A stretch of DNA of 64,000 nucleotides from Spirochaetia bacterium (lineage in GTDB: Bacteria; Spirochaetota; Spirochaetia; UBA9216): positions 864,001 through 928,000 of the forward strand of contig CAXXYH010000004.1 in assembly GCA_963677925.2 (NCBI GenBank), read 5' to 3'. Below the pieces are notes generated by a model, which ran no database searches, was not told where the DNA came from, and was given only the letters and a program-made list of their open reading frames with translations. Below, piece by piece: positions 227 through 28,850 of the stretch. Within the stretch, counting starts at the first letter, position 1; each line of letters begins with the position of its first letter. The position numbers and the translations under genes were made by a program.

Positions 227-1678
227 ATGGGTGATAATAACACAGAAAAGAACAAAGAATTATCATTAAAGGAACGCGTCCTGAGAGGCTCTGCATTGAC
301 CTTGTTTGGGTTTGGGTTTAGCAGAGCTCTACGATTAGGTAATCATCTCATTTTAGCCTGGCTTCTTGCACCTGAAATCTTTGGTCTGATGGCATTAGTC
401 AAGGTTTTTATGCAGGGACTGGGAATGTTTACGGATATAGGCATTGGTCCAAGTATAATACAAAGCAAACGAGGTCACGATATAACTTTTCTAAATACAG
501 CCTGGAGTATCCAGGTTTTACGTGGAGCAGGATTGTGGTTAATTACATGTATTTTAGCTTGGCCATTTTCATTGTTCTATGGGAAGAATGATCCTGCGGC
601 TTCTCAGCTTGTTTATTTACTTCCAGTTTCTGGCCTTTCGGTACTTATCGGCGGATTCAAACATCCTGTTATGTACACTTTAGAAAAAGAATTAAAAATC
701 GGTAAGATAACAATAATTCAAATTGTGTCTCAACTGGTTTCACTGGCAACTATAATAATTTGGGCTTTGATAAAACCGTCAATATGGGCTTTGATCGCGG
801 GAAGTATAGTTTCGGCATTTTTTAATGTTATTATCAGTCATACAATAATTGCAAAACATAGAGTTCGCTTTCAAATTGAAAAAGAGTTCCTCGGTGAAAT
901 TATTTCATTTGGAAGATGGATTATGCTAAGCACAGCATTTACATTTTTATCAAATAATATGGATAAACTGATTTTAGGAAAAGTCTTAAGTTTAAAAGAA
1001 TTGGGTATTTATGGTATTGCAACTACATTAACAAAAATGGCACTTGATATAGCTACTCGTCTTGGTTCTTCAATTATGTATCCAGTATATTCAAAATTTC
1101 AGGATGATACTAAAAAGTTAATGTCAATTGCATTAAAATCTAGAGATATTGTGTTGTGGATAGGTTTTACTGTCAGTGTAGCTATGGCTGTTGGTTCTCC
1201 CTTATTTTTTCAAACTCTTTGGGATGTCAGATATCAATATGCAGGAGTATTGGCTCAGTGGATGATTATACTTATGTGGACCCGAATTTTGCTTTATACT
1301 ATGAGTCGTATACCCTTATCCTTAGGTAATTCAAAGTCGTTGTTCATTTCAAATGTAATTCAGACTATGGGAATTTTTATTGCTGCAGGCATATATCAGT
1401 TTGCTGGATTGCCGGGATTTATAGTTGGTTTAGCAATTGGTCCCATTGCAGCACACGTCTATCTCACTATGATTTTACCTGTTATGAGAAAGGAGATGTT
1501 AATACAAAGCTCTGTTTTTTCTGTTCTGACTTTAATTGCCGGTGGTGCTATGGTATTTTTTAATTCCTGGTTAGAGACAAATAGTTCAGAGCCTGTTTGG
1601 TTTGTTGTAGTTATTTCCATGGTAATACTAATCTGTTTAATCTCGTTATTAACAGTTTATCGAAAAATTAAACGTTAA
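227..1678 (+). CDS. Oligosaccharide flippase (Wzx/PST, MOP family)
   Basis: 483 aa, about 12 hydrophobic segments, 'LAWLLAPEIFGL...DIGIGPSIIQ' and 'DKLILGKVL...LGIY' PST motifs. Confidence 0.88.
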   Translation: MGDNNTEKNKELSLKERVLRGSALTLFGFGFSRALRLGNHLILAWLLAPEIFGLMALVKVFMQGLGMFTDIGIGPSIIQSKRGHDITFLNTAWSIQVLRGAGLWLITCILAWPFSLFYGKNDPAASQLVYLLPVSGLSVLIGGFKHPVMYTLEKELKIGKITIIQIVSQLVSLATIIIWALIKPSIWALIAGSIVSAFFNVIISHTIIAKHRVRFQIEKEFLGEIISFGRWIMLSTAFTFLSNNMDKLILGKVLSLKELGIYGIATTLTKMALDIATRLGSSIMYPVYSKFQDDTKKLMSIALKSRDIVLWIGFTVSVAMAVGSPLFFQTLWDVRYQYAGVLAQWMIILMWTRILLYTMSRIPLSLGNSKSLFISNVIQTMGIFIAAGIYQFAGLPGFIVGLAIGPIAAHVYLTMILPVMRKEMLIQSSVFSVLTLIAGGAMVFFNSWLETNSSEPVWFVVVISMVILICLISLLTVYRKIKR

Positions 1679-1785
1679 AGTGTTTTTAAATCTGTAGCAG
1701 AGGATTAGATTAATAAAGTTTTTCTTCTTTCAACTAATAATTAGATATAAAATGTTAACTAATCGAAAAATTAATAGGAACTTGT

Positions 1786-3072
1786 ATGAAGGCAAATGAA
1801 AAAAAGATATTAAAACTTCCTTACAGAAAGGAAACTACTGAGTTGTTGATTCCTGCAGAAGTAGATTTATATATTTGCGAACCTAATGATATTGAATTTG
1901 TATTGGATGATAAAGTAATTATTGATAAAGCTCTTGAAATGCAATCAGGCTCATTATCATTTCTTAATTTTGTTAGAAACAAAACTGATAAAGATGAGTC
2001 AATACTCGTTATCGTTAATGATCAGACACGACCAACGCCTACTCGTGTTGTTTTAAATTCCATAGCTGGCAGTTTGACAGATAGGAAAAATGTAACTTTT
2101 ATTATTGCGACAGGGGCTCACCGCAGACCAACAAAAGATGAGCTTGAAGACATTTTTGGAGATACATATGAATTCTTTTCAAATAATATTATTGTGCATG
2201 ACGCAAAGAGAAGTGAGCTGATGGCATATATTGGAACATCAGCATCAGGTACCGAATTGTATATAAATAAGCTGGCTTTGGATGCTGATAAAATAGTAGT
2301 GATAGGGTCTGTTGAACCTCACTATTTTGCTGGATATACTGGTGGTAGAAAAGGGATACTTCCAGGAATTGCCTCCTATAGAACTATTGAGCAAAATCAT
2401 AAACACGCACTATCAATAAATGCCAGAAGTCTGATTTTGGAAGGGAACCCGGTTCATGAAGATATGATTGATGCAATTCAACATTTAAATAAACCAATTT
2501 ATGCAATTATGACAGTTCTTGATAAAGATCAACATATCTATGCTGTCACAGCTGGCGATATTCATGATTCCTTCTATGCGGCAAAAAATGCTGCTGATGA
2601 AATTTTTGTAGTTGATATTAATGAAAAAGCGGATATTGTAATTACTGTAGCAAAAGATCCAATGGATATTGATCTTTATCAATCGCAAAAAGCGATAGAT
2701 AATGGAAAACTTGCATTGAAAAATGGAGGAATCCTGATATTGGTTTCATCTTGCCGTGATGGAATTGGTGACAATGCCTTTCTGGATCTTCTGTCATCAT
2801 GTAGCTCTCCTTTAGAGGTTATTGAAAAGATTAAAAATGAATATAAATTGGGATGGCATAAGGCTGGGAAGATGGCAGAGGCTAACCTAATAGGAGAAGT
2901 GTGGGCAGTAACTGAATTGCCGGATGATATTTTAGAAAGTATTTTTATAAAACCTTTTCCTAGTCTTCAAAATGCTTTATCTGAAGCATTAAAGATAAAA
3001 GGAGAAAATGCAAGTATTATCATATTGCCTGATGGATGTGTTACTATTCCTAGAGTAAAAGAATTGAGGTGA
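1786..3072 (+). CDS. larA: LarA-family nickel-pincer-nucleotide-dependent alpha-hydroxy-acid racemase/epimerase
   Basis: Motifs NDQTRPTP, ATGAHR, VHDA, EPHYFAGYTGGRKGILPG, QNH, DLYQSQKA retain the LarA catalytic Asp/Arg/His/Lys residues. Confidence 0.88.
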   Translation: MKANEKKILKLPYRKETTELLIPAEVDLYICEPNDIEFVLDDKVIIDKALEMQSGSLSFLNFVRNKTDKDESILVIVNDQTRPTPTRVVLNSIAGSLTDRKNVTFIIATGAHRRPTKDELEDIFGDTYEFFSNNIIVHDAKRSELMAYIGTSASGTELYINKLALDADKIVVIGSVEPHYFAGYTGGRKGILPGIASYRTIEQNHKHALSINARSLILEGNPVHEDMIDAIQHLNKPIYAIMTVLDKDQHIYAVTAGDIHDSFYAAKNAADEIFVVDINEKADIVITVAKDPMDIDLYQSQKAIDNGKLALKNGGILILVSSCRDGIGDNAFLDLLSSCSSPLEVIEKIKNEYKLGWHKAGKMAEANLIGEVWAVTELPDDILESIFIKPFPSLQNALSEALKIKGENASIIILPDGCVTIPRVKELR

Positions 3073-4289
3073 CGATAAAAATGAATCTTAAAGTAAGGAA
3101 AATTTTAGAAGAATCAATAGAAACACCGGCAGTTATATTGCCGCTTAGCTATAATGGTATCTTATTTACGAGAGCACTAAAATCAAAACATATACCAGTT
3201 ATAGGCATAATTAAATCAAAAAAGGATTGTTTCTATCACACTAACAGTTGTGCCAAGATTATAAGTTCGGATCTTTATGGCGAACATGCGTTAGCTAATC
3301 TAATTGAGGCAGGTAAACTTGCAAGGAAAAATCCCGCCTTGATTCCTACATCAGATGAAGGTGTTAAATTTATTCTTTCTAATCTCAAAGTACTTAAAAA
3401 ATATTACTTAATTAATATTCCTCAAGAATCAACTGCAAACCTGCTATTGGATAAGCAGAGTCTATATGCGTGGGGAAATGATAGATATCCATTCCCGAAA
3501 ACTTTGATTATTAAAACTGAACAAGAATTGAATGAATCTCTGGAAGACCTATTTTTCCCTGTAATAATAAAACCAAACTATAGGGACGCAAATTGGCCTG
3601 CAACTTTGGATAAGGCTGTGCTGGCTGATGATGCTCAGATAATGATTAAGGCTTTTCACAAGTTTATTCCTCATGCAGATGCTTGCCTTGTTTCAGAGTA
3701 TATACCAGGTGGTGATGAGAATATTGAAACCTGTCATGTTTTCTATGATGAAGGAAAACTCGTAAATTCATATACTGATCAAAAAATTAGACAGTATCCA
3801 CCTCTAACAGGAACAGGTTCATATATTTCTTCCTGCTATAATCCCGAAATCAAAAAAATTACTATTAATTTTTTTGATGATCATGATAATTATACCGGGG
3901 TAGGGGGAATAGAATTTAAGAAACATGATATTACTGGTGAATATAAAATAATAGAACCTTTTGTAGGTCGGCCAAGTAGTCATTTCTATACAGGTTTAGG
4001 GGAGGGTTTTAATTTCCCCTTTATTGTTTATTGTCAGATAGTCGGTAAAGAAATACCTAAATATGAACAATCATATAAAATTGTCAGCCAGTTAGATGAA
4101 GAATTTGAGCTTCAGGCTTGTAGAGAATATTTAAAATCAGGAAAAATGAGTATTGGTAAATATTTAAAAACAATTGTTACAACAGAATTATTTGTCAGGT
4201 TTTCAATAAAAGACCCATCTGTAGGTTTTGTATATTTTTTTCAGGTGATAAGTAGGTTATTAAGAAAACCATTTACAGGTATGAATTGA
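3069..4289 (+). CDS. ATP-grasp carboxylate-amine ligase (D-aspartate-ligase-like)
   Basis: LIPTSDE, FPVIIKP, SEYIPGGD, KIRQYP...GTGS, GIEFK motifs; overlaps the larA stop (GTGA). Confidence 0.8.
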   Translation: MTIKMNLKVRKILEESIETPAVILPLSYNGILFTRALKSKHIPVIGIIKSKKDCFYHTNSCAKIISSDLYGEHALANLIEAGKLARKNPALIPTSDEGVKFILSNLKVLKKYYLINIPQESTANLLLDKQSLYAWGNDRYPFPKTLIIKTEQELNESLEDLFFPVIIKPNYRDANWPATLDKAVLADDAQIMIKAFHKFIPHADACLVSEYIPGGDENIETCHVFYDEGKLVNSYTDQKIRQYPPLTGTGSYISSCYNPEIKKITINFFDDHDNYTGVGGIEFKKHDITGEYKIIEPFVGRPSSHFYTGLGEGFNFPFIVYCQIVGKEIPKYEQSYKIVSQLDEEFELQACREYLKSGKMSIGKYLKTIVTTELFVRFSIKDPSVGFVYFFQVISRLLRKPFTGMN

Positions 4290-4306
4290 TTTTAGGGGTA
4301 TATTAA

Positions 4307-5335
4307 TTGAATGCTGCATTGAACAAATTAGGTATAATCTTTATTGGAAGAAATGAAGGTGAAAGAATATTAAAAGCTGTAGAATCTTTCCCCGCGAGTT
4401 CTGCTTCTGTCATTTATGTAGATTCTGGTTCCACTGATGGAAGTGTTGATTTGATTATATCAAAAGGTATAAATGTTCATTCTTTAAGTCCTGAGAAACC
4501 CTTTACGGCTGCAAGAGGGCGAAAAGAGGGGGCTGAAATAATGTTAAAAGAATATCCAGATGTCAGATGGATCCAATTTATAGATGGCGATTGTGCATTA
4601 GATCCTTTATGGTGTGACATTGGAGTAGAATATCTGCAGAGTCATGATGAAGTTGGTATTGTCTGCGGTATCCTTGTAGAAGAAAAACCGGAATTGTCAC
4701 ATTTTAACAGAATGAATGCTTTGAGATGGAGTTCTGCTCCGATAGGCGAAATTGAGGCTTGCGGAGGTATCTTTCTGGCAAGACGAGAAGCCTATGAACA
4801 ATCCGGTGGTTTTAATGAAATTCTTCTGACCGGAGAGGAGGCTGAATTTTGTTTGAGGGTAAGAAGTTCTGGATATTTAATTATGCGTTTAAATAAGCGA
4901 ATGGCTATTCACGATTCAGATTTAATATCATTGAAGTCATGGTGGAAAAGAGCTATATGGGGTGGATATGGGGATGCCTTGCGGCATGTAACAATAAAGC
5001 ATAGTAATAATAATCCAGAGAAAAGAAAGATTAGAAGTAGTTTTATATGGGGATTATTTATGCCTTTTATCTTTTCGGTAGGTATACTGGGTAGTTTTTT
5101 TAATGAATTGTTAATTGTTTTACCTGCAATTGTTCTGATTTTATATATTCAGCTTTTATTAAGATTGATTATCAGAAACCTTAAGAACGGAAATGGCTAT
5201 AGAGACTCTTATATATATTCTTATTTGACGATAGTTAGGAAAGTACCTCATTCATTAGGTTATATCAAATTTTTTTTATATCCGAAAAATTTTAATAAAA
5301 GGCCTGACCCGCATAATAATAACAGATCTATTTAA
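4307..5335 (+). CDS. Glycosyltransferase family 2 with C-terminal membrane segments
   Basis: IGRNEG, YVDSGSTDGS, FTAARGR, QFIDGD, GGFNE..GEE motifs. Confidence 0.88.
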   Translation: MNAALNKLGIIFIGRNEGERILKAVESFPASSASVIYVDSGSTDGSVDLIISKGINVHSLSPEKPFTAARGRKEGAEIMLKEYPDVRWIQFIDGDCALDPLWCDIGVEYLQSHDEVGIVCGILVEEKPELSHFNRMNALRWSSAPIGEIEACGGIFLARREAYEQSGGFNEILLTGEEAEFCLRVRSSGYLIMRLNKRMAIHDSDLISLKSWWKRAIWGGYGDALRHVTIKHSNNNPEKRKIRSSFIWGLFMPFIFSVGILGSFFNELLIVLPAIVLILYIQLLLRLIIRNLKNGNGYRDSYIYSYLTIVRKVPHSLGYIKFFLYPKNFNKRPDPHNNNRSI

Positions 5336-5481
5336 AATTTTACTTACTGATACAAGAAAAATGAAATTGTGTCTAAATGTAGATAGACTTTTATTAAAGA
5401 TGAATATTTATCTTTGAATATTGATATATTTAGTGTGAATTAGTTAACGATGTATATAAAAAAAAAGATTGAGGTGTTGTT

Positions 5482-6375
5482 GTGGAAATTATAAAAGAAA
5501 TTAAAGTAAAAATAGGTTATTGTTATCATATAGTTTTAGGTAAAATATCACCTACTATAGCAAGTTATTCTCTCTATAAGAAGTATACAAATCGCCGTTT
5601 GAATTTAAGGAAACCTAAATATCTTGATGATTATTTAATGGGTATTAAGTTACATAATTATTCTACTAATGATTTAGTTGTGTTATGTTCAGATAAATAT
5701 CTTGTAAGAGAGTATATTTGTTCAAATGGATTAGAATATATTTTGAATGAATTGTATGCCGTGTATAATAATGTTGATTCTATCAATTGGGGGGAGTTGC
5801 CAATAGAATTTGTGATTAAATTAAATCATGGAAGTGGATTTAATTTAATTTGTAAAGATAGAGCGACTTTGGATATAGACAGTACAAAAAGAATATTAAA
5901 AAGGTGGTATAAAACAAAATTTGGTTTATATACTGTGGAACCTCATTATTTGAAGATTAAGAAAAAAATAATTGTTGAAAAATATCTGAAAGGTTCTGAA
6001 TACTGCTCCTCTCCAGATGACTATAAAATATTTTGTTTTTATGGAATACCAAAAATTATTCAAGTTTGTACTGAAAGAGATGCCGATGTTAAATATAAAT
6101 TATATGATACCTCATGGAAAGAAGTAGGTTATTTATTAGATGATTATAGGAGTAATAAAGATTTTTCTAAGCCTAAAGTCTTAACAGATATGTTAGATAT
6201 TGCGTGTAAATTATCTAATCCATTCCCATTTGTAAGAGTGGATCTGTTTCTGATGGAGGAAAAAATTATTTTTAGTGAATTAACATTTACACCATTTGCA
6301 TGTAGTTGTAGAATATTAAATTCTACTGGGCAGATTGAATTGGCTCGTGAATTTCAGAGTGAAAATTTAATTTAA
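5482..6375 (+). CDS. TupA-like ATP-grasp protein
   Basis: SDKYLVREY, FVIKLNHGSG, IIVEKYL, DYKIFCF, FVRVDLF, FSELTFTP motifs of the TupA ATP-grasp family. Confidence 0.88.
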   Translation: MEIIKEIKVKIGYCYHIVLGKISPTIASYSLYKKYTNRRLNLRKPKYLDDYLMGIKLHNYSTNDLVVLCSDKYLVREYICSNGLEYILNELYAVYNNVDSINWGELPIEFVIKLNHGSGFNLICKDRATLDIDSTKRILKRWYKTKFGLYTVEPHYLKIKKKIIVEKYLKGSEYCSSPDDYKIFCFYGIPKIIQVCTERDADVKYKLYDTSWKEVGYLLDDYRSNKDFSKPKVLTDMLDIACKLSNPFPFVRVDLFLMEEKIIFSELTFTPFACSCRILNSTGQIELAREFQSENLI

Positions 6376-6499: not shown

Positions 6500-7703
6500 T
6501 GAACAGTGATCGTATTAACCTGGCAATTGCAAAGAATAGGTGGTCAAATTACCTCCGAAAGATATAATGATTTTACCACAAAACATTTATCAGGAAGATA
6601 AAATGGCCACCAACAAGAATGTAACACAGAAAGCAGCAAGAAGAAAGATGAGCATGTTAGAGCTCGCAGAAGATTTAGGAAATGTAAGCAAGGTATGTAA
6701 AATTATGGGTTATTCCCGCCAGCAGTTCTATGAGATTCGGAAGAAATATTAAACTTACGAATCTCAGGGATTAATCAACAGCTGACCAGGACAACGTAAT
6801 CCACATCCAAATCGAGTAGCACCTGAAATTGAAGTAGAAATTCTGGTTTATAGTTTGGAGTACACAACCCATGATTGTCTTAGAGTTTCTCAGCAGCTTG
6901 CCTTGAAAGGTGTGAACGCAAGTTAAGGCGGAGGCCGAGGAGTATGGATTAGGCATAAAATAGAAACTCGCCACCAGCGTTTTTTACGCTTGAAAGGAAA
7001 TTGATATATTAAAAATTCAAGCTTAATGATGACCAAATAAAACTACTTGAAAGAGTTAATCCTGAGATCAGAGAAAGATAAATCGAAACAAAACATACAG
7101 GTTATCTCGTTTTGATAGATACCTTTATGGATCGGACATCTGAAAGGAATCGGTAAAATATACTTACAGACAGTAATTGATTGTTATAGTCGACATGCAT
7201 TAGGAAGGCTGTATACAAATAAGCTTCCTGTGACAGCATTTCAGGTGATAAACAATGATGTTCTGCCTTTTTTCGAAGAACATAATGTGAAGGTTAAGAA
7301 TGTGCTGACCGACAATAGACATGAGTATTACGGAAGAGCGGGCTGTCATTCGTTCGAATTAGTTATTCAGTTTAAGGATATCGAGCACAGGATAACAAAG
7401 GTTCGCAGGCCACAGAGTAATGGATTTTTAAGTGGCTACATCGAACTTTACTGGATAAGTTTTTTTAGAATTAAAGGTCGTGAAAAATACTACGAATATT
7501 ATCTGAGATGCATTAAGATCTGGATAAGTTTTTGAAGTACTACAACAATGAGCGAGCACATCAAAGGTGCAATATGAAGAATAGAACACCCTCTCCGGTC
7601 ATCCTTGAGGAAATAGAAAAAGACGAGGATAATGATGGCACTGCCGCATAATGAAATTATATATTTTTCGAAGTGAGTGTCAAGGAAATACGCTAACTAA
7701 ACG
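6500..7703 (+). mobile_element. IS481-family insertion sequence, degraded (transposase pseudogene ~6602-7650)
   Basis: Fragments LELAEDLGNVSKVCKIMGYSRQQFYE, VLTDN, VRRPQSNG and YNNERAHQ with stops/frameshifts; imperfect terminal inverted repeats at ~6500-6525 and ~7678-7703. Confidence 0.82.
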
Positions 7704-7859: not shown

Positions 7860-7962
7860 TAAACAAGTATATAGACACTTTCGAATAATAAAATGCTAAT
7901 TTGTACCTTGGTAATTCTTTTGTCAATAACAATTTAAATTAAAAATTTAGAACGTAGTAGTT

Positions 7963-10928: not shown

Positions 10929-11789
10929 ATGAGTAATTTGATGAAAAGGTTAGATATGCCTAAATCAGAATTTTTAGTTTTCTCTTCAATGGGAGATAGA
11001 GCAAATATAAAATATTGGCTAAAAGGTAATAGGAATTTTGATTTATGGGTTTGTTATTATGGTGATGATGGAAATAAATATATTGACTCTTCTGATTATT
11101 ATTTTAAAAGAAAGGGTGGAAAGTTTCCTAATTTGCATTATGTATATAATAACTGGAAGAATGAAATTGATTTTTATAAAGCCGTTTTTGTTATAGATGA
11201 TGATGTTATTCTTAATGGAACTAAGATTACCAATTTATTTAATATTTTATTTGACTACAAATTGTGGTTGATTCAACCAGCTTTCAATCCTCTTGGTAAA
11301 GTTAGTCATTATCTAACAATGGTTAAACCTTATACTAAGTTTAGGTATACCAATTTTGTTGAAGTTACTTGTCCTCTATTTTTAAAAAGTAAACTTGATG
11401 AATTTATGAATGTATATGATCCAGTGCTAGTTGGATGGGGCGTTGACCATTGGTTTATAAACAATTTAGGATCTGAAATAGCCAATAAAGTAGCAGTTAT
11501 TGATGAGATAACATGTATCAATCCTTTTGATTTCACAAAAAATAGTATTAATTTTCGTGGGAAAAGAGAAATCGATACATTGCAGAGTAAAAGCAAAAGA
11601 GTTGAGGTTTGGAAGGGTGTTAAAGCTAAATATAATATTAATGATATAAAAATAAAAGAAATAGGATATGAGCGTTTGTCTTTAAATTTGTATAATTTAA
11701 TAAATATTTTTTATTATTCTCTTCTTATTCTTTGTAAGTTAATCGCACGGAGAATTAGATCGACTTTTATCTATAAAAAAAGAAGATAA
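10929..11789 (+). CDS. DUF707-like putative glycosyltransferase
   Basis: FDLWVCYYGD, DDD, QPA, TNFVEVTCPLF and GWGVD motifs of the DUF707 family. Confidence 0.72.
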   Translation: MSNLMKRLDMPKSEFLVFSSMGDRANIKYWLKGNRNFDLWVCYYGDDGNKYIDSSDYYFKRKGGKFPNLHYVYNNWKNEIDFYKAVFVIDDDVILNGTKITNLFNILFDYKLWLIQPAFNPLGKVSHYLTMVKPYTKFRYTNFVEVTCPLFLKSKLDEFMNVYDPVLVGWGVDHWFINNLGSEIANKVAVIDEITCINPFDFTKNSINFRGKREIDTLQSKSKRVEVWKGVKAKYNINDIKIKEIGYERLSLNLYNLINIFYYSLLILCKLIARRIRSTFIYKKRR

Positions 11790-16388: not shown

Positions 16389-16507
16389 AAATATACAGAA
16401 ATAAAAATGTGATTAAACTTAATACGTGTGATAATATACTATGTTTAATAATGCATAATATTGTAAAATATAAATCTGTTAGAGGATATCATTAATAGAA
16501 CAATAAT

Positions 16508-19500
16508 ATGAATAGAGAAACTTCAGTCTGGTATGGGAAAAACACCAGTTTATCAAATTATAAATGCTGGTTAGATTTATTCTATAAAAACGTTGAATTA
16601 ACTCCTGATAAAATTGCAGTAATTTTTGAAAACCGTTATATTTCATATAGAGAACTTGATCTGCTTTCTAATTGGTTTTGTAATCAGATTTTAAAAAATT
16701 CAAATAATGATAATGATTTTATAGGAATTCATCTGAAAAGATCTCATATCATGCTTGCTGCGATGATTGGTGTGGCAAAAGCCGGTAAAGCTTACCTGCC
16801 ATTAGATCCTTCATTTCCGAAAGCCAGACTATTGTATATGCTCGAAGATTCTGGCACAAAATTGATAATTGCAGATGAAAATACTGGTCTTGAAGACGTA
16901 ATTGGCAATAAAGAGATTCAACTTGTGGATTCCGGGAATTGCGTGCAGGAAGAGCAAATTGATTTCATAGAATACAATTTAGAAAAACAACCAGCCTATA
17001 TATTATATACGTCAGGATCCACAGGTAAGCCGAAAGGTGTTGTTGTTGGCCATAAGGCCTTCCTGAACTTTTTATTATCAATGAAAGAAGAGCCTGGTTG
17101 TAATAGTTCAGATGTTTTACTTGCTCTTACTACTATTTCATTTGATATTTCAGGGTTGGAATTATTTCTTCCTTTAATCTGTGGCGGTACCATATATGTG
17201 GTGTCGCGTGAAGTTGTGTTAAATCCTAAAAAGATGCTGAATATCATAGAGACAAATGAAATATCAATCATTCAGGGAACTCCTGCATTATGGAAACTAC
17301 TTATAGATTATGGTTTTAAGGGAAAAGATGGGTTGAAGATCCTATGCGGTGGAGATATTTTCCCCTTGGATTTGGCAATTAATTTATATAATACAGGCTG
17401 TCCAATATGGAATATGTATGGCCCTACAGAAACAACAATCTGGTCATCAGTCTATAAGCTGGAAAAAGAACCTGATGTTGCACCCTACATAGGGTTTCCA
17501 ATTGCAAATACTGGATTTCATATATTAGATGAAGATTTGGATCCTGTTGAAAAGGGTGAGGCTGGTCTCCTTTGGATAAGCGGGGATGGTCTGTCTGATG
17601 GATACTGGAAAAAACAGGCACAAACGAATGAAGTTTTTAAAAAAATCAATAATAATTCCGGTCAATTTTTTTATAATACCGGGGACTGGGTATACGAAAC
17701 TATTGATGGCAATATTGCATTTTCAGGAAGGAAAGATAATCAGGTCAAAATTCGGGGATATCGTATAGAAATTAGTGAAATAGAGAAAAGTCTCATAAAT
17801 ATTCCTGCAATAAAAGATGCTGTAGTATTATCCAGGAAAGATAGTAAAGAAAATACAATATTAGTAGCTTTTTATATATTAGATCAAATTGATGAAGAAA
17901 TTTCATCATCTTTCATCAGAAATGAGTTGGCTAATACTTTACCTGAATACATGATTCCCGCTTATTATTTTAAGTTGGATAAGTTTCCAATGACACTGAA
18001 TAATAAGATTGATAGAACTGCTTTTCCTGATATTGGTACAATTGAAAAACAATCAGAATCCAAAGTTCAAAAGACCTTAACCTTATTGGAGTACATTCAA
18101 AAATGCTGGAATGAGTCTTTGGGCCACAAAAACTTTTCAGAACATGATAATTTTTTTGATGTTGGAGGGTATTCTGTTCTAATTGTTGATATTTTACATA
18201 AAATTGGAACTTTTCTTAATAAAGATATAGATCCCTTAATATTTTTTGAAAATCCTACGATTTATTCATTAAACAAAGCCTTAACAACAAATAAAGAAGA
18301 TATTATAATTGATTCTGCAAGTATGGATAAAGATACTCTTCTTGAAGATTCTGATGATCTTACCCTCGCTATAATTGGAATGTCCTGTGCTGTGCCGGGA
18401 GCTGAAAATGTAGAGGAATTCTGGGAGTTGTTATCTCAGGGTAAAAGCGGAATTTTGGAACATTCAGTAGATGATTTAATAAACGCCGGCATGCCTTTGG
18501 AGGTTATAGAACAGCCGAATTATATTAGGAAATCCGGAATTTTACCTTCTACTGAGTATTTTGATCATGAATTCTTTGGTTATTCACCTAAAGAAGCTAA
18601 ATTTATGGATCCGCAGCATCGATTGTTTATGCAGCATTGTTATAAAGCTTTAGAATCCGCAGGTATAAAGTCTACCGATGACAATAAAACTGCTGTTTTT
18701 GCCGGTTCCGGACAGAATAAATATCTATTAAAAAATATTATTTTTAGCAGCGAGAAAGAGGAATTTTCGGATTTTCAGATAATGGTAGGAAATGAAAATG
18801 ACTTTTTAGCATCCCGTGTTTCATATAAGCTTAATCTTAGAGGTCCTGCTGTTACTGTTCAATCCGGGTGTTCTACATCTCTCGTTGCTGTTCAGCTTGG
18901 ATATCAAAGTCTTCTTAATTATCAGTGTGATATGGCTTTATGTGGCGGTGTAAGCCTCAATGTTCCGGTAACAGAAGGGTATCTTTATGAGGAGGGCTCA
19001 ATTCTGAGTCCTACAGGAGAGTGTCGAGCGTTTGATGTTGATGCAGATGGAACAGTATTCGGTTCCGGGGTAGGTGTTATTTTATTAAAAAGATTGTCTG
19101 ATGCAGTCCGCGATAATGATCCAATAATAGCTCTCTTAAGATCTGTTGCAATTAATAATGATGGGGCTGACAAAATTGGTTATACTGCACCAAGTATTAG
19201 GGGCCAGGCTGAAGTAATATCTGAGGCATTAGCACTGGCCGATGTGAGCCCGGAACTTATAAGTTATGTCGAAACCCATGGCACGGGAACAATACTTGGA
19301 GATCCCATAGAGATCTCCGGATTGAAAAAAGCATTGAATGCTCAAAGCAGTGATAATCACAAATGTTATATTGGATCAGTTAAAACTAATATTGGTCATC
19401 TTGATACGGCTGCTGGAATTGTAAGCTTGATAAAAACAGCTCTATCTATAAAAAATAAGAAAATACCGGCTTCTTTAAACTATTTAGCCCCAAATCCTGT

Positions 19501-22075: not shown

Positions 22076-22194
22076 ATTGGAAAAATTTAGACAGGATTAC
22101 CACCTGCTATTTTAAATTATTTGAATCTTTCTTAAAAACTTTGAATTTAGTGTATAATTATAAACAGTAAAAAAATTCAGGTGAAGGTAAAAAT

Positions 22195-25100
22195 ATGAGT
22201 GTTATGATAACTTCTATCAAGCGTTATTTTCAAACAGTTAACGCAATTTTAAAAGTTAATACTGCATATAATATTGTTCTTTGTTGTAAGCTTTCCGGGA
22301 AGATAGATATTCCTAAATTGCATAAGTGTTGGCTTGATTGTTCAGCTCTCATCCCTGAACTATATGGAGTTTGTGATGTTGAGAAGATCCAAATCGTATC
22401 CGAAGAAAAAGCATATAGTTTTGTTAAAAAAGAATCTGAAAATAATTTTGATTTAAGCGATTCTGGTGTCCCATTAAGGGCTTTTATCCTCGAGTTAAAT
22501 ACTTCTGATTGCTTGTTCTGTGTAATACAGCATCATTCGCTTATAGATCTCCATTCAAAAAACCTTCTATCAAGGACGATATCAGAACTATATAATAAAG
22601 GAAAGAGTTCTTTTAAGTTTCTTAAATACAAAGAAACAGAGCCAGCTATACTAAATATGGAGTTCTGGAAAAATCAGCTGGAAAATGAACCATCGCCTCT
22701 GTTGCTCCCTTCAGCCTTACCCGAAAGGGGTAATTTTACAGGTGATGGACATACAATTTTTGCAGATATGCCGGATTGGGTTGGTGCTGGACTTCAAAAT
22801 ATTGAAATTGAATATCAGCTTCAGGATTTCCTGATATTCCTGACTGTATATGCTGTTATGCTCTTAAGATTAAGCGGACAGGATGATTTCTTTATTGGAA
22901 TCCCGTTTTCAAATAGAAAGAACCCTGAGCGTGAGTTTATGTATGGTCCCTTTGTAAATGTTCTTCCACTTCGTGTGCAGATTGATAATTCTGATACATT
23001 CATCACTCTTTACTCAAAAATCAGAAAGCAAATGCTACTGCTGAACAGGAATCAGGATGCCCCTTTTCTTGAAATTTCCAGGCTTTATCTTGGTCAGCGT
23101 GATTCCAGGATTCCTTTTTTTATCCAGGCGGGTTTTACACGTGAAGATCCTTTTAATCTTGATCTGGATGGTCTTAAGTGTTCGACTGTTGATATTCGAC
23201 CTGATGGCGCCCAGATGGATCTTTTTCTGACATATTGGCAGGAAAATGATAGATTCCGGTATCGTTGGGAATATAACACTAATGCTTTTACTGAATCACA
23301 GGCTTTAGGTTGGAAAAAATCTTATGAGAATATACTTAAACAGGTATTAACACTCCCTGACATAAAAATTTCTGACATTTCAATGCTTCAGGATAGGTCC
23401 GGAGTTTCTGTCTTTAAGGAAACAATAAGGAAATATCCGGTTGAAATTCCTTTGCGAGCGCTTCTGGAAAAGGTAAGAAAACAAAATTCTGATATCACTG
23501 CAATCAGGGATAAAACCAGGAGCCTAAACTATAATCAGTTTGATAAGCTGGTAAATCAGTATTCATCTGTTTTATACGCAAAGGCAGGATCTGGAAAGTA
23601 CATCGCTGTGAGTATTGATAATTCCATTGAGCGGACCATTCTGATTCATTCAATAGTGAATTCCGGTAATGTCTATATCCCTGTTGATCCGAACTGGCCG
23701 TCTTCAAGGGTTGATTATATCCTTGGAAATTCAGGGGCAAGTCTTGCAGTTATTGAAAAACGCAATTCAGGAAAATACCAAAGCGATGTTGAAACAGTAT
23801 TTATAGATTATTTCCAGGTCTCTGATATAAGTACTGATATCAGAATGGATAAAAAACCTCACGATCCTTTTGCTGTGCTTTATACAAGTGGATCAACAGG
23901 TAACCCCAAGGGCGTTTTTATTAATGGGGACGGACTGATTAACAGACTCTACTGGATGCAGGAAGCCTATCCGTTAAAGCCGGGAGATTCTCTGCTGCAT
24001 AAGGTCCCATTTACGTTTGATGTTTCCATGTGGGAAATATTCTGGCCGTTTCTGTTCGGAGCTTCTCTTTATATTCCTGAACCGGCAAAACATCTTGATG
24101 ATAATTATCTTGCCAATACTATTCGTGAACAGAAAATTAAGTATGTTCACTTTGTTCCCTCACTACTTAAGAAATTTCTTGATTATGCAAAAAATACAGA
24201 TCTGCCGGAACTTAAAGCAGTTATTTGTTCCGGTGAGGCGCTTGAGGTTTCGCTTCTTGAGCAGTATTTTGCAAAAATAGGAAATAAACCGCTTCATAAC
24301 CTTTACGGCCCTACAGAGGCTTCTATTGATGTTACAGCGTGGACATGTTCAAAAGGTGATCTAGATAAGAAGCGAATACCTATAGGGTATCCCATAGCTA
24401 ATACAAGAATTTATATACTTGATAAATATGGAAAGCTCTGCCTGCCTTATGTTAAAGGTGATATTGTTATTGCAGGTATTAATGTTTCAGACGGATATGT
24501 CAATAATCCAGAACTTACTTCAAAGGTTTTTATTGAAGGTGACTGGGGATTTGGTCGTGAACGAGTGTATTTTACTGGTGATCTGGGGTTTTATTCCGAA
24601 CAGGGTATTATCTATTACGACGGTAGAAAAGATTCTCAAGTGAAGATAAACGGTATCAGGATTGAGTTGTCGGAAATCGAACGTCAGCTTGAAAAACTTA
24701 GATCAGTGAAAGCTGCTGCAGTTATAATCCCCGGTAAAAATCAAGGCGATATGACAATATTTGCGTATCTGAAAACTGAATCAAATATTGATATTACAAG
24801 TATTAAGAAGGACCTCTCTCATGTACTGCCAGGCTATATGATTCCTGGAACGTTTGTTGTTCTGGAAGATTTTCCTATGCTGACAAGCGGAAAGATAGAC
24901 AGGAAAGCTCTTACTGCCATTACCCCGGATGTGAAAACTGATTCAGCTTCTAAACCTGTAAAAGCTGCGGGGCATTCAGGAGAAATATCATCGTTGTGGA
25001 GTGAACTCCTTAATCTTGCAGAAATTCCTCTGGATATCAGTTTTTTTGATATTGGTGGTCATTCCCAGCTGCTTCCAGAACTTAAGAGCAGGCTTGAGAA

Positions 25101-25275
25101 ACTATCAGGTGTAGAGATAGAGCTGATTGATCTGTTCAATTATCCTACGGTACAATCACAGTGTGAGCTGCTCTTTAATTCCGGTTCTGAGGTTAAAATT
25201 GAGGTGTCCGGAAATGAGAGACGGCAGATAATGCGGCGTGCGGCTCAAAGAGGCAGGCAGCGGAGAAACGGGTAA
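22195..25275 (+). CDS. NRPS module C-A(Ser)-PCP
   Basis: C-domain HHSLID; A cores YTSGSTGNPKG, YGPTE, FTGD, GKIDR; hand-derived code DVWHISLIDK (Ser-type); PCP GGHS; Arg-rich C-terminal tail. Confidence 0.9.
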   Translation: MSVMITSIKRYFQTVNAILKVNTAYNIVLCCKLSGKIDIPKLHKCWLDCSALIPELYGVCDVEKIQIVSEEKAYSFVKKESENNFDLSDSGVPLRAFILELNTSDCLFCVIQHHSLIDLHSKNLLSRTISELYNKGKSSFKFLKYKETEPAILNMEFWKNQLENEPSPLLLPSALPERGNFTGDGHTIFADMPDWVGAGLQNIEIEYQLQDFLIFLTVYAVMLLRLSGQDDFFIGIPFSNRKNPEREFMYGPFVNVLPLRVQIDNSDTFITLYSKIRKQMLLLNRNQDAPFLEISRLYLGQRDSRIPFFIQAGFTREDPFNLDLDGLKCSTVDIRPDGAQMDLFLTYWQENDRFRYRWEYNTNAFTESQALGWKKSYENILKQVLTLPDIKISDISMLQDRSGVSVFKETIRKYPVEIPLRALLEKVRKQNSDITAIRDKTRSLNYNQFDKLVNQYSSVLYAKAGSGKYIAVSIDNSIERTILIHSIVNSGNVYIPVDPNWPSSRVDYILGNSGASLAVIEKRNSGKYQSDVETVFIDYFQVSDISTDIRMDKKPHDPFAVLYTSGSTGNPKGVFINGDGLINRLYWMQEAYPLKPGDSLLHKVPFTFDVSMWEIFWPFLFGASLYIPEPAKHLDDNYLANTIREQKIKYVHFVPSLLKKFLDYAKNTDLPELKAVICSGEALEVSLLEQYFAKIGNKPLHNLYGPTEASIDVTAWTCSKGDLDKKRIPIGYPIANTRIYILDKYGKLCLPYVKGDIVIAGINVSDGYVNNPELTSKVFIEGDWGFGRERVYFTGDLGFYSEQGIIYYDGRKDSQVKINGIRIELSEIERQLEKLRSVKAAAVIIPGKNQGDMTIFAYLKTESNIDITSIKKDLSHVLPGYMIPGTFVVLEDFPMLTSGKIDRKALTAITPDVKTDSASKPVKAAGHSGEISSLWSELLNLAEIPLDISFFDIGGHSQLLPELKSRLEKLSGVEIELIDLFNYPTVQSQCELLFNSGSEVKIEVSGNERRQIMRRAAQRGRQRRNG

Positions 25276-25287
25276 AGGAGCAGTCGT

Positions 25288-27264
25288 TTGTGCGGGATTA
25301 CAGGAATACTCAAGCCGGGACCGGCAAAAGAACTTAAAGCGGAAATCGAAAAATTAATTCCCTATATTGAGCATCGCGGACCTGACGGATGGGGCAGTTA
25401 CGGGGCTCCTGGGATTGCACTCGGGCACCGCCGTCTCTCTATTATTGATCTGAGTCTTGGAAGTCAGCCTATGGTGTCCGGAAATTCAGTAATAACCTTT
25501 AATGGTGAAATTTATAATTATCTGGAACTCAAAAAAGAGCTTGAATCACTTGGTGTGCTTTTTGAAACTAACAGTGATACTGAAGTTCTTCAGAAAGCAA
25601 TAGATTTCTGGGGAGATTCCGCTTATAGCAGGCTAAACGGACAGTTTGCTCTACTTCACTGGGATAAGAAAAGAAGAATATTAACTGCAGTACGGGACAG
25701 GTACGGAATTAGACCTTTATATTTTATGAAAACTGAAGGCGGCTGGTATTTTTCTTCAGAGATGAAGATTTTTGATCATATAGGCAGTCGAAAACGGTTC
25801 TGGAATCCTGAGAATCTGCTTGAGCATGGGCTTATCTGGAATACTTTGGGCGATTCCACAGTATACAGTAACATCTGCTCGCTTGAAGGCGGCTGTTTCC
25901 AGAAGTTCAGTGATGAAGGAACTTCCGGTCCGAAAAGATACTATGTTCTGGGGCAGGATGCTGGTGCAATGCTTACGGAAGCTCCAGATGTTTTGGCCGA
26001 AATCTTTCGCGAAAAGCTTTCAGAATCTGTCAAACTTAGGCTTCGAAGTGATGTTCCTGTTGGCTGTTACCTCAGCGGCGGGATTGATTCATCGGTAACC
26101 TCTTATCTTGCAAAGAAAATCAATAACAAATCATTTAAGAGTTTTTCAGTAACTTTCAGCGATCCATCCTTTGATGAGTCTGAATTCCAGAAGATAATGG
26201 TAAATTCGCTGGGGTTCGATCATTATTCTGTGAATATCGATGGCAAAGCTGTAGAAAATAATTTTTATAATGCGGCGAAACACTTTGAGAGGCCTGTTTT
26301 CAGGACAGCTCCGGTGCCGCTTTTTCTTCTTTCAGAGAAGGTTCGTGAAACTGATGTAAGGGTAGTGCTCACTGGTGAGGCTTCAGATGAAATTCTGTTT
26401 GGTTATGACACCAACAAGGAGCTTAAACTTCTTTCACTCTGGAAAAAAGGTTTGAGTGAGGAGGAGATTACAAAGATTCTCCTGCAGCTTAATCCGCATC
26501 TTGACCATTACAAAGATAAAGAGCAGGTTGGTTTTTTAAAAATGTACTACGAGGGTTTCCTGGATCGCTTTCAAAGTCCTCTTGGTGGACTGGTTATGCG
26601 AATCAGTAATAATCAGGTGTTAACCAATATATTTAATAAAGAATGGGGTCTTTCTTTCAATTTCAACAACCTTGCGGATAAAGTGGATTCATTGACTCCG
26701 CCACACGTTAAGCAGTGGGGCATATATCAGAAAAATCAATTCTGGGAGATGAAGACTTTGCTTTCCGGGTATCTTCTCTCTGCACAGGGAGACAGGATGG
26801 CGATGTCTCATGGTATTGAGGGCCGTTTTCCCTTTCTTGATCATAACCTCATTGAATGGCTGATGACTGTTCCTACAGATGTAAAAATAAATGATTTCTC
26901 AACAAAACATCTGCTTAAGGATGCTTTCAGGGATGTTATTCCGGAACCAATAATAAATAGGCCTAAAAGACCTTATACAGCACCCGACATAGCGTCATTT
27001 TTTCCTGGCGGCAGACGTGGAGAACTTGTGAAAAATTATTTAAATAGTGATATAGTGAGAGAGTACGGGATTTTTGAACCTAAAATGGTAGAAAGATTGA
27101 TTTTTAAAATAGAACGTCGAGGTCTTGAATCTGCGGGATACCGTGATAACATGATGACAACTTATCTGCTTTCCTCTCAAATTGTTGAAAGTCAAATCAG
27201 AAATCCTGAAATAAAAATTGTTGATTACTCGAATCAGACAGTGAGTGTGCTAGAGGAGTATTAA
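25288..27264 (+). CDS. asnB: Asparagine synthase (glutamine-hydrolysing)-type amidotransferase
   Basis: N-terminal MCGI, HRGPD, HRRLSIID, NGEIYN, RDRYGIRPL, LSGGIDS, GEASDE, RFPFLD; AAAGGAG RBS before TTG. Confidence 0.92.
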   Translation: MCGITGILKPGPAKELKAEIEKLIPYIEHRGPDGWGSYGAPGIALGHRRLSIIDLSLGSQPMVSGNSVITFNGEIYNYLELKKELESLGVLFETNSDTEVLQKAIDFWGDSAYSRLNGQFALLHWDKKRRILTAVRDRYGIRPLYFMKTEGGWYFSSEMKIFDHIGSRKRFWNPENLLEHGLIWNTLGDSTVYSNICSLEGGCFQKFSDEGTSGPKRYYVLGQDAGAMLTEAPDVLAEIFREKLSESVKLRLRSDVPVGCYLSGGIDSSVTSYLAKKINNKSFKSFSVTFSDPSFDESEFQKIMVNSLGFDHYSVNIDGKAVENNFYNAAKHFERPVFRTAPVPLFLLSEKVRETDVRVVLTGEASDEILFGYDTNKELKLLSLWKKGLSEEEITKILLQLNPHLDHYKDKEQVGFLKMYYEGFLDRFQSPLGGLVMRISNNQVLTNIFNKEWGLSFNFNNLADKVDSLTPPHVKQWGIYQKNQFWEMKTLLSGYLLSAQGDRMAMSHGIEGRFPFLDHNLIEWLMTVPTDVKINDFSTKHLLKDAFRDVIPEPIINRPKRPYTAPDIASFFPGGRRGELVKNYLNSDIVREYGIFEPKMVERLIFKIERRGLESAGYRDNMMTTYLLSSQIVESQIRNPEIKIVDYSNQTVSVLEEY

Positions 27265-27266
27265 TT

Positions 27267-27509
27267 ATGTCATTGAAACAAATGTTGATAGATTTTATTT
27301 GTCAGAATTTTATGGTTGAAGAACATGAGATAGATCTTGATGAATCTCTCATTGACCAGGGAATTATTGATTCATTTGGTCTTGTGGAGATTTCCGGGTT
27401 TCTTAAAAAGGAATTTGGAATTGAAACTGATCAGTCTGACATGAACAGGGCAAATTTCGGATCAATAGAAAAAATAGTAATATATGCAGAATCAAAGCGT
27501 TTGAAATAA
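27267..27509 (+). CDS. Free-standing acyl/aminoacyl carrier protein
   Basis: 80 aa acidic protein with 'GIIDSFG' phosphopantetheine site and 'NFGSI' end. Confidence 0.88.
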   Translation: MSLKQMLIDFICQNFMVEEHEIDLDESLIDQGIIDSFGLVEISGFLKKEFGIETDQSDMNRANFGSIEKIVIYAESKRLK

Positions 27510-27518
27510 GCGAAGTGC

Positions 27519-27818
27519 ATGGAAAAATTATTCTTTACCTGACTAAGCAGTGTTAGTTTTAAAAAAGATGACGGCTGCTGGCTTGATTTATATTATAAGA
27601 ATATCAATTTGGTTTCGCGGAAAATAGCTGTAATATTCGAAGATAGGAGAATTTCATATAGGAAACTTGATTATCTTGTAAACTGGTTTTTCGACAAAAT
27701 ACGCAGTTTATATTCATCCGGGACTCTGTTTGCAGGCATTTTTACAAAATATTCCAATTTGATGCTTGCAGCTAATTTTCTAAGGAATTATGTATGGAAT
27801 CAACATTTTATAAGATAA
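27519..27818 (+). pseudogene. Truncated duplicate of the 5' end of the NRPS-PKS A domain
   Basis: CWLDLYYKN...KIAVIFEDRRISYRKLDYLVNWF...GIFTKYSNLMLAA aligns with CWLDLFYKN...KIAVIFENRYISYRELDLLSNWF...GIHLKRSHIMLAA (from 16565). Confidence 0.8.
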
Positions 27819-27950
27819 CGGGCTTTCTATCAATTAATCAAAAAACTTAATGTGAAAAGTAATAAAAAGGCTCTCTCTATCAAAATCTCTATAAAAAGAC
27901 TTTGTCTCTAAATATAACGTTGTTTTTTCAGAGTGACTATTGTAAAAAAG

Positions 27951-28850
27951 TTATTTAACTGCTTCCATATAAATTGCGACATCTGTCCATAATCTATCAA
28001 AAACTGGGTTTTTCCTCATCACAGGTGAGAGACTTTGGCCTGCGGATAAGGAAATTACTTTTTCAAATCCAGCTTCAAAAAGGAAATTTTCTAGTTTGCA
28101 ATAATCCCACCAATTAACATGGTTTTTTCTATATTTCCGCTGTTTTTCTATCGAACATCGGCTTGTACATAGATTCATTGCATTTTGAAAATTATTATCT
28201 CTTATTATTGAATCAAATTCTTCATCGCTTATAGGATTATCTGCTCCATCTGAATGTATCATTGAAGCATTCGCAGCAAAATGGGATAGCATTACCTGTG
28301 GAAGCGTTGCTTTATTAAGTGGAGTAGAGAACTTCATTATGTCCATTATCTCCGGATAGCTAAACCCATCTAACCACCAAAAATATTGTCTATCGTTTCT
28401 TAAATATGCTTCATAATCTAATCTAATATTCGGGGTGACAATTTTAAATATGCCATCCTTTTTTAGTGTTCTATGGATTTCTTTGAAAAGGTAGATTGCT
28501 GAATCATCATCTATGTGTTCAATTGCAAAACGACTATGGAATAATTCTGCAGAATTGGATTCTATTGGAAGTTCATTTCTATCTAACGGATCATGTGCAA
28601 TATCGATTTCAGGATTAAATCTTGGATAAATCTCTTCACCGAGATCAACATCTATATTTGTCCAATAGGGATGGTAGAATTTACCACCGAAACCAAAATG
28701 ACCTCCTGCTGAAATATTATAAAATGCTTTCTCTTTAACACTTTTAATCCCATAAATTTCGGAATACTCTGAGAGTCTTTCTATTTTATTATCTGATTTT
28801 ATAACATCATATCCAAAAGATTTTAAAAACTTTTTAATTCGCTTTTTCAT
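27951..28850 (-). CDS. Class I SAM-dependent methyltransferase
   Basis: NISAGG, WTNID, LPIESNSAELFHSRFAIEHI, EIHRTLKKDG..KIVTP motifs. Confidence 0.75.
   Translation of the reverse strand: MKKRIKKFLKSFGYDVIKSDNKIERLSEYSEIYGIKSVKEKAFYNISAGGHFGFGGKFYHPYWTNIDVDLGEEIYPRFNPEIDIAHDPLDRNELPIESNSAELFHSRFAIEHIDDDSAIYLFKEIHRTLKKDGIFKIVTPNIRLDYEAYLRNDRQYFWWLDGFSYPEIMDIMKFSTPLNKATLPQVMLSHFAANASMIHSDGADNPISDEEFDSIIRDNNFQNAMNLCTSRCSIEKQRKYRKNHVNWWDYCKLENFLFEAGFEKVISLSAGQSLSPVMRKNPVFDRLWTDVAIYMEAVK

Follow-up and report, generated by a model that had tools for sequence, protein, structure and literature searches.

Antigenicity, recognition by phages and by the immune system, and the properties of biofilms all depend on the non-sugar substituents of bacterial surface glycans, and the known routes to these substituents use acyl-CoA, ATP-grasp ligases or the single-step Dlt carrier system. 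In D-alanylation by Dlt (DltA, DltC, DltB and DltD), an adenylating enzyme loads a small carrier and the cargo ends up on teichoic acids. For the tetronate acylation of perosamine in Vibrio cholerae O1, an rfb carrier protein and an adenylating enzyme build the unusual N-acyl group of an amino sugar. The type I polyketide synthases (PKSs) WcbR and RkpA are thought to make a lipid part. According to the accessible parts of PMC3908369, their genes lie inside the Burkholderia wcb and rhizobial rkp capsule biosynthesis and export clusters. Here we analyse a 64,000-nucleotide stretch of a Spirochaetia genome (G000:C4:864001-928000, hereafter the window), in which a nonribosomal peptide synthetase (NRPS)-PKS cassette sits in a Wzx-type polysaccharide locus. 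The cassette is compact, with five genes and glycine, serine, malonyl-CoA and glutamine as predicted substrates. It is genuinely and repeatedly associated with glycan loci: the core cassette is present in eight Spirochaetota genomes from five families (G000, G001, G018, G613, G529, G543, G090 and G220), and in seven of them glycan-assembly genes abut it. We put the probability that the thiotemplate product becomes part of the glycan at roughly 0.55.

The cassette in the window (Table 1) has all domains of a modular cis-acyltransferase NRPS-PKS hybrid, with catalytic and carrier residues in place. Its hybrid protein combines adenylation (A), peptidyl carrier protein (PCP), ketosynthase (KS), acyltransferase (AT), acyl carrier protein (ACP) and thioesterase (TE) domains; it keeps the KS cysteine and two histidines, GHSLG and SAFH in the AT domain (the latter a motif that we take to be malonyl-type), the carrier serines in GGYS and GGDS, and GISFGG in the TE domain. 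No reducing domain (KR, DH or ER) was found in it by Pfam or in the translation. The second NRPS gene encodes condensation (C), A and PCP domains, and its C domain, which carries the HHxxxD motif, is divergent, reaching only 66 bits to solved C domains. The AsnB protein has a cysteine at position 2 and an SGGIDSS PP-loop, and is therefore a glutamine-hydrolysing amidotransferase; it scores 421 bits to TIGR01536, above the cut-off. The methyltransferase-like (MT-like) family is rare, 5.8 billion proteins yielding just 21 further clusters, and orthologues at 57-60% identity lie beside the cassette in G001, G018 and G529. The conserved flank downstream holds, ~13.5 kb from the cassette, a candidate phosphopantetheinyl transferase (PPTase) gene, which resembles a PPTase gene with Pfam ACPS and AASDHPPT_N domains that stands next to the cassette in G018.

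Both A domains have readable signatures. The ten specificity positions were set by GrsA numbering together with motif anchors, and the translations gave DILQLGMIWK for the hybrid and DVWHISLIDK for the C-A-PCP protein, letter for letter the codes that an earlier note on this DNA had derived by hand. Each lies one position off a signature in the published tables, that for glycine and that for serine, respectively. The closest solved relatives of the hybrid A domain are LgrA (its second A domain being the better match), 5u89 and 4zxh, and those of the C-A-PCP A domain are LgrA, 8xjz, Txo2 and EntF; LgrA module 2, the DhbF fragment and AB3403 are presumably glycine-activating and EntF serine-activating, consistent with the signatures. 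DILQLGMIWK is identical in all five A-bearing hybrids, its columns being invariant or nearly so in an 11-sequence alignment, and the C-A-PCP signature reads DVWH[IVMF]SL[IV]DK in all eight genomes. The hybrid A domain is thus predicted to be of the glycine type and the C-A-PCP A domain of the serine type.

The recurrence of the cassette emerged from three sets of genomes. Among 41 relatives searched with the hybrid protein, full-length orthologues were found in G001 (58%) and G018 (48%). A class sample of 401 genomes, 10 of which had any hybrid match at E<=1e-200, added G613 (45%) as well as G529 and G543 (39%), whose versions are KS-first, and a phylum sample of 401 genomes queried with AsnB added G090 and G220, both outside the class. 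The distribution is patchy, with the cassette in 3 of the 38 genomes of family f89. At the protein level, metagenomic orthologues of the hybrid exist at 42-49% identity, and several members of the MT-like family come from contigs of the same lengths as those that carry hybrid orthologues. The earlier note had proposed to look for recurring co-localisation of the NRPS-PKS, AsnB and ACP genes with wzx and glycosyltransferase genes in unrelated genomes; the co-localisation was borne out in seven of eight genomes from five families, all of which are Spirochaetota and so not unrelated in the sense intended.

Gene contexts, read by local BLAST and Pfam, show what surrounds each copy (GT2 and GT4, glycosyltransferase families 2 and 4; AT3, membrane acyltransferase; MT, MT-like gene). 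The G001 locus runs Wzx, GT2, GT4, an A-domain protein, AT3, LbH, GT2, GT4, GT2, LbH, C-A-PCP, AsnB, ACP, hybrid, MT. In G018, the genes GT4, Wzx, GT4, LbH, GDSL, AT3 and a divergent PPTase gene lead into C-A-PCP, AsnB, ACP, WbuX-like and hybrid, followed by an esterase gene on the other strand and then MT, GNVR and Poly_export, so that the cassette stands between Wzx and glycosyltransferase genes on one side and Wza/Wzc-like genes on the other. G613 has Wzx, Wzy_C-like, GT2, WecG, GT4, GT2, LbH, GT2, GT4, A-PCP-TE, LbH, C-A-PCP, AsnB, ACP, WbuX-like and hybrid; here the glycan genes lead into the cassette without a change of strand, and at its end stands a convergent AT3 gene. In G529, the order Wzx, RgpF, GT4, GT2, MT, C-A-PCP, AsnB, ACP is convergent with KS-AT-ACP-TE. 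In G543, AT3 precedes KS-AT-ACP-TE, its stop codon 4 bp from the PKS start, and the pair is convergent with ACP, AsnB, C-A-PCP, A-PCP-TE, GT2, a 354-aa gene and MBOAT; WecG and further GT2 genes are nearby. The G090 contig carries a Bac_transf initiating transferase gene 518 bp upstream of C-A-PCP, AsnB, ACP, WbuX-like and a KS at the contig end, and the G220 contig starts with AsnB, ACP, WbuX-like, C-A-PCP and hybrid. Overall, a Wzx gene lies within ~17 kb of the cassette in five of the eight genomes, and an AT3 gene within ~1 kb of a thiotemplate gene in four, directly beside it in G001, G543 and G613 and separated from it by the PPTase gene in G018. The cassette is kept while the glycosyltransferases around it vary (GT2-rich in some loci and GT4-rich in others, with Wzx proteins 24-35% identical).

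As a crude control, we collected 84 generic NRPS-PKS loci with 29-41% identity to the hybrid. Four came from a scan of genome contigs with the hybrid (best match 37% over KS-AT only, none orthologous) and 80 from a scan of metagenome contigs with the 11-sequence alignment, which picked up generic motifs and none of the 42-49% orthologues and served as control only. None of the 84 had an AsnB, ACP, MT-like, WbuX-like PP-loop or Wzx match at E<=1e-15, and one had a GT2 match. These counts bear on the rival that survives best, in which the cassette would yield a free, secreted metabolite, such as a tetramate-like compound or an amidated serine/glycine ketide, and would be found in glycan loci only because such loci are accessory islands prone to recombination. 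The terminal TE domain, the low-GC variable island with its insertion sequence (IS) relic, the ABC transporter near the G543 copy and the G220 contig devoid of glycan genes all fit this rival. We nevertheless consider it unlikely, given that most of the seven loci with glycan genes have the cassette tightly abutting on the same strand, that the G018 copy is flanked by glycan genes on both sides, that AT3 all but touches the PKS gene in G543, that no exporter was seen in the window, and that none of the generic loci had such neighbours.

The locus itself has the marks of one for a surface polysaccharide. Wzx-type and low in GC, it occupies a horizontally variable site, spans ~43 kb and begins ~14 kb before the window, positions 227-28850 making up its 3' two-thirds; GC content is 26-36% inside the locus, compared with 40-50% further right and 49% further left. 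The ORF listing and family scans show a same-strand run of genes at 227-27509, and the locus genes in the 20 kb scanned upstream of the window are on the same strand. Compared with the congener G001, the flanks are syntenic and mostly 81-99% identical, two right-edge genes being at 69-73%, and inside the locus identity falls to 35-36% for Wzx and a GT2 and to 57-78% for the cassette genes. On this comparison, it shows the divergence between syntenic flanks that serotype-type glycan loci commonly have. The regulators at its two edges, one sigma-54-dependent and one LuxR/VpsT-like, may regulate it; scanned for promoters and terminators, 12000-30500 yielded as many as shuffled sequence did. Wzx is accompanied by ~8-9 glycosyltransferases in total, including at least four of GT2 and a GT4, and by the WecG/TagA protein, as is usual for a Wzx/Wzy-dependent locus. 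The G613 gene equivalent to the candidate Wzy gene of G000 matches Wzy_C weakly (E 2.6e-4). An initiating phosphoglycosyl transferase, Wza/Wzc and WaaL gave no family match within the 43 kb, and relatives do carry such genes (Bac_transf in G090, GNVR and Poly_export in G018).

This gene content also bears on a second rival with the roles reversed, in which the thiotemplate product is a lipid-free peptide-ketide aglycone that the glycosyltransferases of the locus decorate and Wzx exports as a glycosylated metabolite or glycoconjugate. Precedent exists in Collimonas, where, according to the available parts of PMC8313283, glycosylation and secretion of an NRPS-PKS product have been proposed for an O-antigen-like locus of the Wzy type, and glycosyltransferase genes do lie directly beside the cassette. 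Still, the number of glycosyltransferases, the WecG-type transferase, the candidate 10-TM (transmembrane) polymerase and the sugar-nucleotide and deacetylase genes of G000, together with the Wza/Wzc-like export genes of G018, make up a set typical of a polymer built on undecaprenyl phosphate, and we regard this rival as slightly less probable than a free metabolite.

The copy in the window has been rearranged. In G001, G018, G613 and G090 the order is C-A-PCP, AsnB, ACP, WbuX-like where present, and PKS, compared with the hybrid ahead of C-A-PCP and an inverted MT-like gene in G000. Directly after the ACP gene lies a relic of the 5' end of a hybrid gene, with 55-56% amino acid identity to hybrid residues 19-85. 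Its DNA is only 71% identical over 70 bases, and it is therefore no recent copy of the present hybrid gene; judged by this similarity, it marks the putative ancestral position of the PKS gene, as in the relatives, and indicates recombination between what were presumably two cassette alleles. A second relic, of an IS481-like transposase, has the TupA-like ATP-grasp gene on one side and the beta-helix gene on the other; a 101-aa piece of it is 50.6% identical to an annotated ISAs19-family transposase in a protein search, the element is single-copy in the genome, and a DNA search against plasmids returned no match. That the G000 cassette is a decaying remnant that no longer contributes to the glycan, an idea compatible with any of the other three readings, would fit the gene order, which departs from that of four of the seven relatives (in G220 the hybrid likewise comes last, but with C-A-PCP after the AsnB-ACP pair), the two relics and the inverted gene, yet it is improbable, since all five cassette ORFs are full length with catalytic and carrier motifs intact and the ten-residue signatures are identical to those of the relatives.

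Returning to a product that joins the glycan, we propose that an NRPS-PKS tailoring line builds an amidated serine/glycine/ketide unit on a starter made by AsnB and the free ACP, and transfers it to a Wzx-dependent polysaccharide. The line would be a portable module swapped between spirochaete glycan loci, and its product the first true NRPS-PKS product to serve as a polysaccharide substituent. We hold this fuller proposal to be slightly less likely than its opposite. In the proposed route, the hybrid AT domain would malonylate the free ACP besides its own ACP; there is no separate AT gene, so the PKS domain would have to do this loading. AsnB would then turn the acid on the ACP into a malonamyl-type starter by amidation, as happens in the glutarimide and gladiolin pathways, and the divergent, starter-like C domain, which opens its module in the manner of a starter C domain, could couple the starter to serine on the PCP. 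The KS would add one malonate with retention of the beta-keto group, and is presumably fed from the C-A-PCP module, because three relatives have a KS-first PKS without A-PCP. Glycine from the A-PCP didomain would be incorporated at a step that we do not place. Finally, the TE domain, or the adjacent AT3 in four relatives, would transfer a unit of ~250-350 Da to the repeat unit, at an amino or hydroxyl group. The two deacetylases, as de-N-acetylases, and the DegT aminotransferase encoded upstream could supply free sugar amines. In relatives, AT3 (and once MBOAT) beside the thiotemplate genes would give access to a polymer outside the cytoplasm; in G000, the candidates for transfer are the TE domain itself or the GNAT, FemAB-like and ATP-grasp enzymes. 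Of all the steps in this mechanism, transfer to the glycan has the weakest support.

The AsnB step differs from what the earlier note had suggested, namely that AsnB amidates a uronic acid. AsnB adjoins the free ACP in all eight genomes and retains the glutaminase nucleophile Cys2, an arrangement like that of amidated-starter systems, and because of these two features it more likely amidates a carrier-bound acid. There is precedent for an AsnB homologue that amidates an ACP-bound malonyl or succinyl starter in the accessible parts of 10.64898/2026.04.24.720606 and PMC7756379.

Several points weigh against the proposal. It rests on sequence and gene context, and all eight genomes come from one phylum, so the cases are not independent. 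A TE domain normally releases free acids or cycles its substrate, the place of glycine in the chain is not fixed, and no cassette has a discrete AT gene beside AsnB and ACP, unlike the glutarimide and gladiolin clusters. An AT3, MBOAT or LbH transferase that could make the link was found in relatives and none in the locus of the window, whose rearranged cassette, in a locus with an IS relic, may not work as it does in the relatives. The G543 ABC half-transporter, ~2 kb from the PKS gene, could export a free product, and the G220 contig has no glycan gene on its 23 kb, which is too short to tell.

Across the eight genomes, C-A-PCP, AsnB, ACP and KS-AT-ACP-TE are constant (the G090 PKS being cut by the contig end), and other parts vary. 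The MT-like gene accompanies four of the eight cassettes. The PKS is KS-first, without A-PCP, in G529, G543 and G090, and G543 has a separate A-PCP-TE with a glycine-like signature. A WbuX-like PP-loop gene lies between ACP and PKS in G018, G613 and G090 and after ACP in G220, and was not found in G000, G001, G529 and G543. The G018 gene and a second G220 gene score 146-157 bits to TIGR03573, the N-acetyl sugar amidotransferase model, where the cut-off is 203, and the others either are 55-56% identical to the G018 gene or give the same weak Pfam matches. In the accessible parts of PMC10607449, the WbuX family is described as making acetamidino groups on O-chains. The TE nucleophile is a serine (GxSFGG) in four of 11 aligned orthologues and a cysteine (GGECVGG) in seven, at hybrid residues ~1678-1686. 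The sequences of the two TE types differ greatly, as they would after a swap of the domain. A link between the cysteine type and the WbuX-like gene was considered and rejected, as G220 has a serine TE with the gene and G543 a cysteine TE without it. We also rejected the 2902-aa protein P0004 as a fusion of C-A-PCP and hybrid: it reads A-PCP-KS-AT-ACP-C-A-PCP-TE, its C-A-PCP is only 27% identical to that of the window, and it gives no evidence on module order. In G001 (G001:C7 123976-127118), C-A-PCP is split into a 218-aa piece with the N-terminal C domain and an 837-aa ORF, overlapping by ~28 bases; the split may be natural, or may reflect a frameshift or an error of sequencing. G220 carries, 2 kb after its main cassette (G220:C26 14764-19860), a second set of AsnB, ACP, WbuX-like PP-loop and AMP-ligase genes, the last of them TIGR03098-like, which shows the AsnB, ACP and PP-loop triad as a putative module of its own.

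The glycan genes of the window largely agree with what the earlier note had listed: the claimed ORFs and domains exist in the ORF listing and in Pfam and NCBIfam scans, the gap from the last GT2 gene to the hybrid gene is indeed 119 bp, and the absence of a dedicated exporter holds within the window, where Wzx is the sole transporter family matched by Pfam at 1-34 kb. Three of its four GT2 genes stand, and the fourth (13846-14853) has the weak PgaC-like N-terminal match alone; the DUF707-like match exists below the cut-off, and of the two ATP-grasp ligases the TupA-like one is firm, with the other depending on a weak LysX match and an Atlas feature score of 0.98 to CPSase_L_D2/ATPgrasp_Ter clusters. 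The LarA-like protein has malate racemase LarAH6 as its best NCBIfam match (379 bits, under the 500 cut-off). The secreted beta-helix protein, with Atlas scores of 0.94-0.95 to Beta_helix/Pel9A-like clusters and ~150 shared features, is a lead only, for glycan processing. The LarA, DUF707-like, beta-helix and both ATP-grasp genes have no counterpart in the loci of G001, G018, G613, G529 and G543, the five loci compared, and are by this comparison specific to the glycan locus of this strain, contrary to the idea that LarA and the ATP-grasp enzymes belong to the conserved system. The LarA-like gene is grouped with the two ATP-grasp genes and a GT2 gene at 1786-6375, a grouping unique to this locus that suggests a separate, independent decoration of the glycan, in which a hydroxy acid (malate- or lactate-like) is held by an amide bond.

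Table 1. Features of the polysaccharide locus and its surroundings (coordinates within the window unless another sequence is named), with AT3 genes of relatives
Feature	Position	Strand	Evidence and remarks
LuxR/VpsT-like regulator	L116 6076-6747	+	left edge of locus; conserved in congener, 96-98%
447-aa protein, candidate Wzy polymerase	upstream of window		~10 TM segments; no Pfam match
WecG/TagA second-step transferase; Kdo-kinase-like gene	upstream of window		
GFO/IDH/MocA oxidoreductase; NAD epimerase/dehydratase	upstream of window		
GT4; polysaccharide deacetylase; GNAT; GT2; DegT aminotransferase	upstream of window		
FemAB-like gene	upstream of window		Acetyltransf_6
Second polysaccharide deacetylase	upstream, reaching window edge		
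Wzx-type flippase	227-1678	+	Polysacc_synt_3 168 bits, Polysacc_synt 81 bits; ~8 hydrophobic segments
LarA-like nickel-pincer 2-hydroxyacid racemase homologue	1786-3072	+	Lar_N 179 bits, LarA_C 68 bits
Probable ATP-grasp carboxylate-amine ligase, 406 aa	3069-4289	+	no Pfam match; LysX E 0.0026
GT2	4307-5335	+	Glycos_transf_2 E 2.9e-10; 36% identity to G001 locus gene
TupA-like ATP-grasp ligase	5482-6375	+	ATPgrasp_TupA 142 bits
Degraded IS481-like transposase relic	6540-7650	+	short ORFs broken by stops
Secreted 583-aa protein, probable right-handed beta-helix	8022-9773	+	no Pfam match; hydrophobic N-terminus
Weak DUF707-like protein	10929-11789	+	DUF707 E 0.0037, under cut-off
GT2	12728-13708	+	Glycos_transf_2 137 bits
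Possible GT2-like protein	13846-14853	+	PgaC/IcaA N-terminal match only, E 2.4e-4
GT2	15483-16388	+	Glycos_transf_2 95 bits
Hybrid A(Gly-type, predicted)-PCP-KS-AT(malonyl-type)-ACP-TE, 1855 aa	16508-22075	+	Pfam, all domains above cut-off
C-A(Ser-type, predicted)-PCP	22195-25275	+	Pfam; C-domain motif HHSLID; PCP carrier Ser present
Glutamine-dependent AsnB-type amidotransferase	25288-27264	+	Asn_synthase 266 bits, GATase_7
Free-standing ACP, 80 aa	27267-27509	+	3 bp after AsnB; PP-binding 30 bits; IDSFG serine motif
Relic of hybrid-gene 5' end, ~66-85 codons	27573-27773	+	directly after ACP
Class I SAM-methyltransferase-like (MT-like) protein	27951-28850	-	Methyltransf_11 E 2.4e-6, C-terminal part; weak PDB match 3bkw
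Sigma-54-dependent response regulator	31631-33046	-	just right of locus; conserved in congener, 96-98%
Candidate Sfp-type PPTase	42331-42969	-	36.6% identity, E 4e-36, to G018 PPTase gene
AT3 gene, G543	G543:C1 4260840-4261934		
AT3 gene, G613	G613:C52 92944-94089		
AT3 gene, G001	G001:C7 135990-137129		
AT3 gene, G018	G018:C4 566401-567408		

Given these features, the cassette is probably a new form of carrier-protein-dependent glycopolymer tailoring. If so, thiotemplate chemistry would be added to the means of glycan tailoring, natural-product assembly lines would be linked with polysaccharide biosynthesis, and 'orphan' NRPS-PKS clusters, now classed as antibiotic-like in genome mining, would be accounted for. 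A search of the full-text literature, which includes few subscription journals, found no published account of an NRPS-PKS cassette in Wzx loci or in spirochaetes.

The described systems each share part of this architecture. As far as the accessible parts of the sources go, gladiolin GbnA/B/C and glutarimide SmdFGH/ChxBCD/GdsBCD likewise have a stand-alone ACP beside a glutamine-dependent AsnB, near a KS module. This likeness is one of gene arrangement; the cassette has a cis AT domain and no discrete AT, its next step would be C-A(Ser)-PCP where theirs is a trans-AT PKS, and it lies in a polysaccharide locus where theirs lie in antibiotic clusters. Dlt is echoed by the free ACP, whose best NCBIfam match is DltC (PRK05087), by the A domains, which score 263-278 bits to DltA models, and by the MBOAT gene in the G543 locus. 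Unlike Dlt, however, the ACP stays under the DltC cut-off (36.3 bits vs 68), the cassette is multi-modular with C, KS, AT and TE domains, and the host is a diderm with a Wzx-dependent glycan; Pfam found no MBOAT (DltB) or DltD partner in the window, and MBOAT was found in the G543 locus alone. The Vibrio cholerae O1 system is not known to have C, KS, AT or TE domains or an AsnB partner. The exosortase/PEP-CTERM exopolysaccharide set is approached by the AsnB of the window, at 338.9 bits to TIGR03108 with a cut-off of 816.9, and by the second-set ligase of G220, at 403 bits to TIGR03098 and likewise below the curated cut-off. Unlike the exosortase-associated and WbuX-type sets, the window has neither a WbuX-like gene nor a stand-alone ligase. 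WcbR and RkpA, likened here by description, are also type I PKSs inside a polysaccharide cluster, but they belong to other phyla and are PKS-only, whereas the spirochaete cassette joins its PKS to NRPS modules, AsnB and a free ACP.

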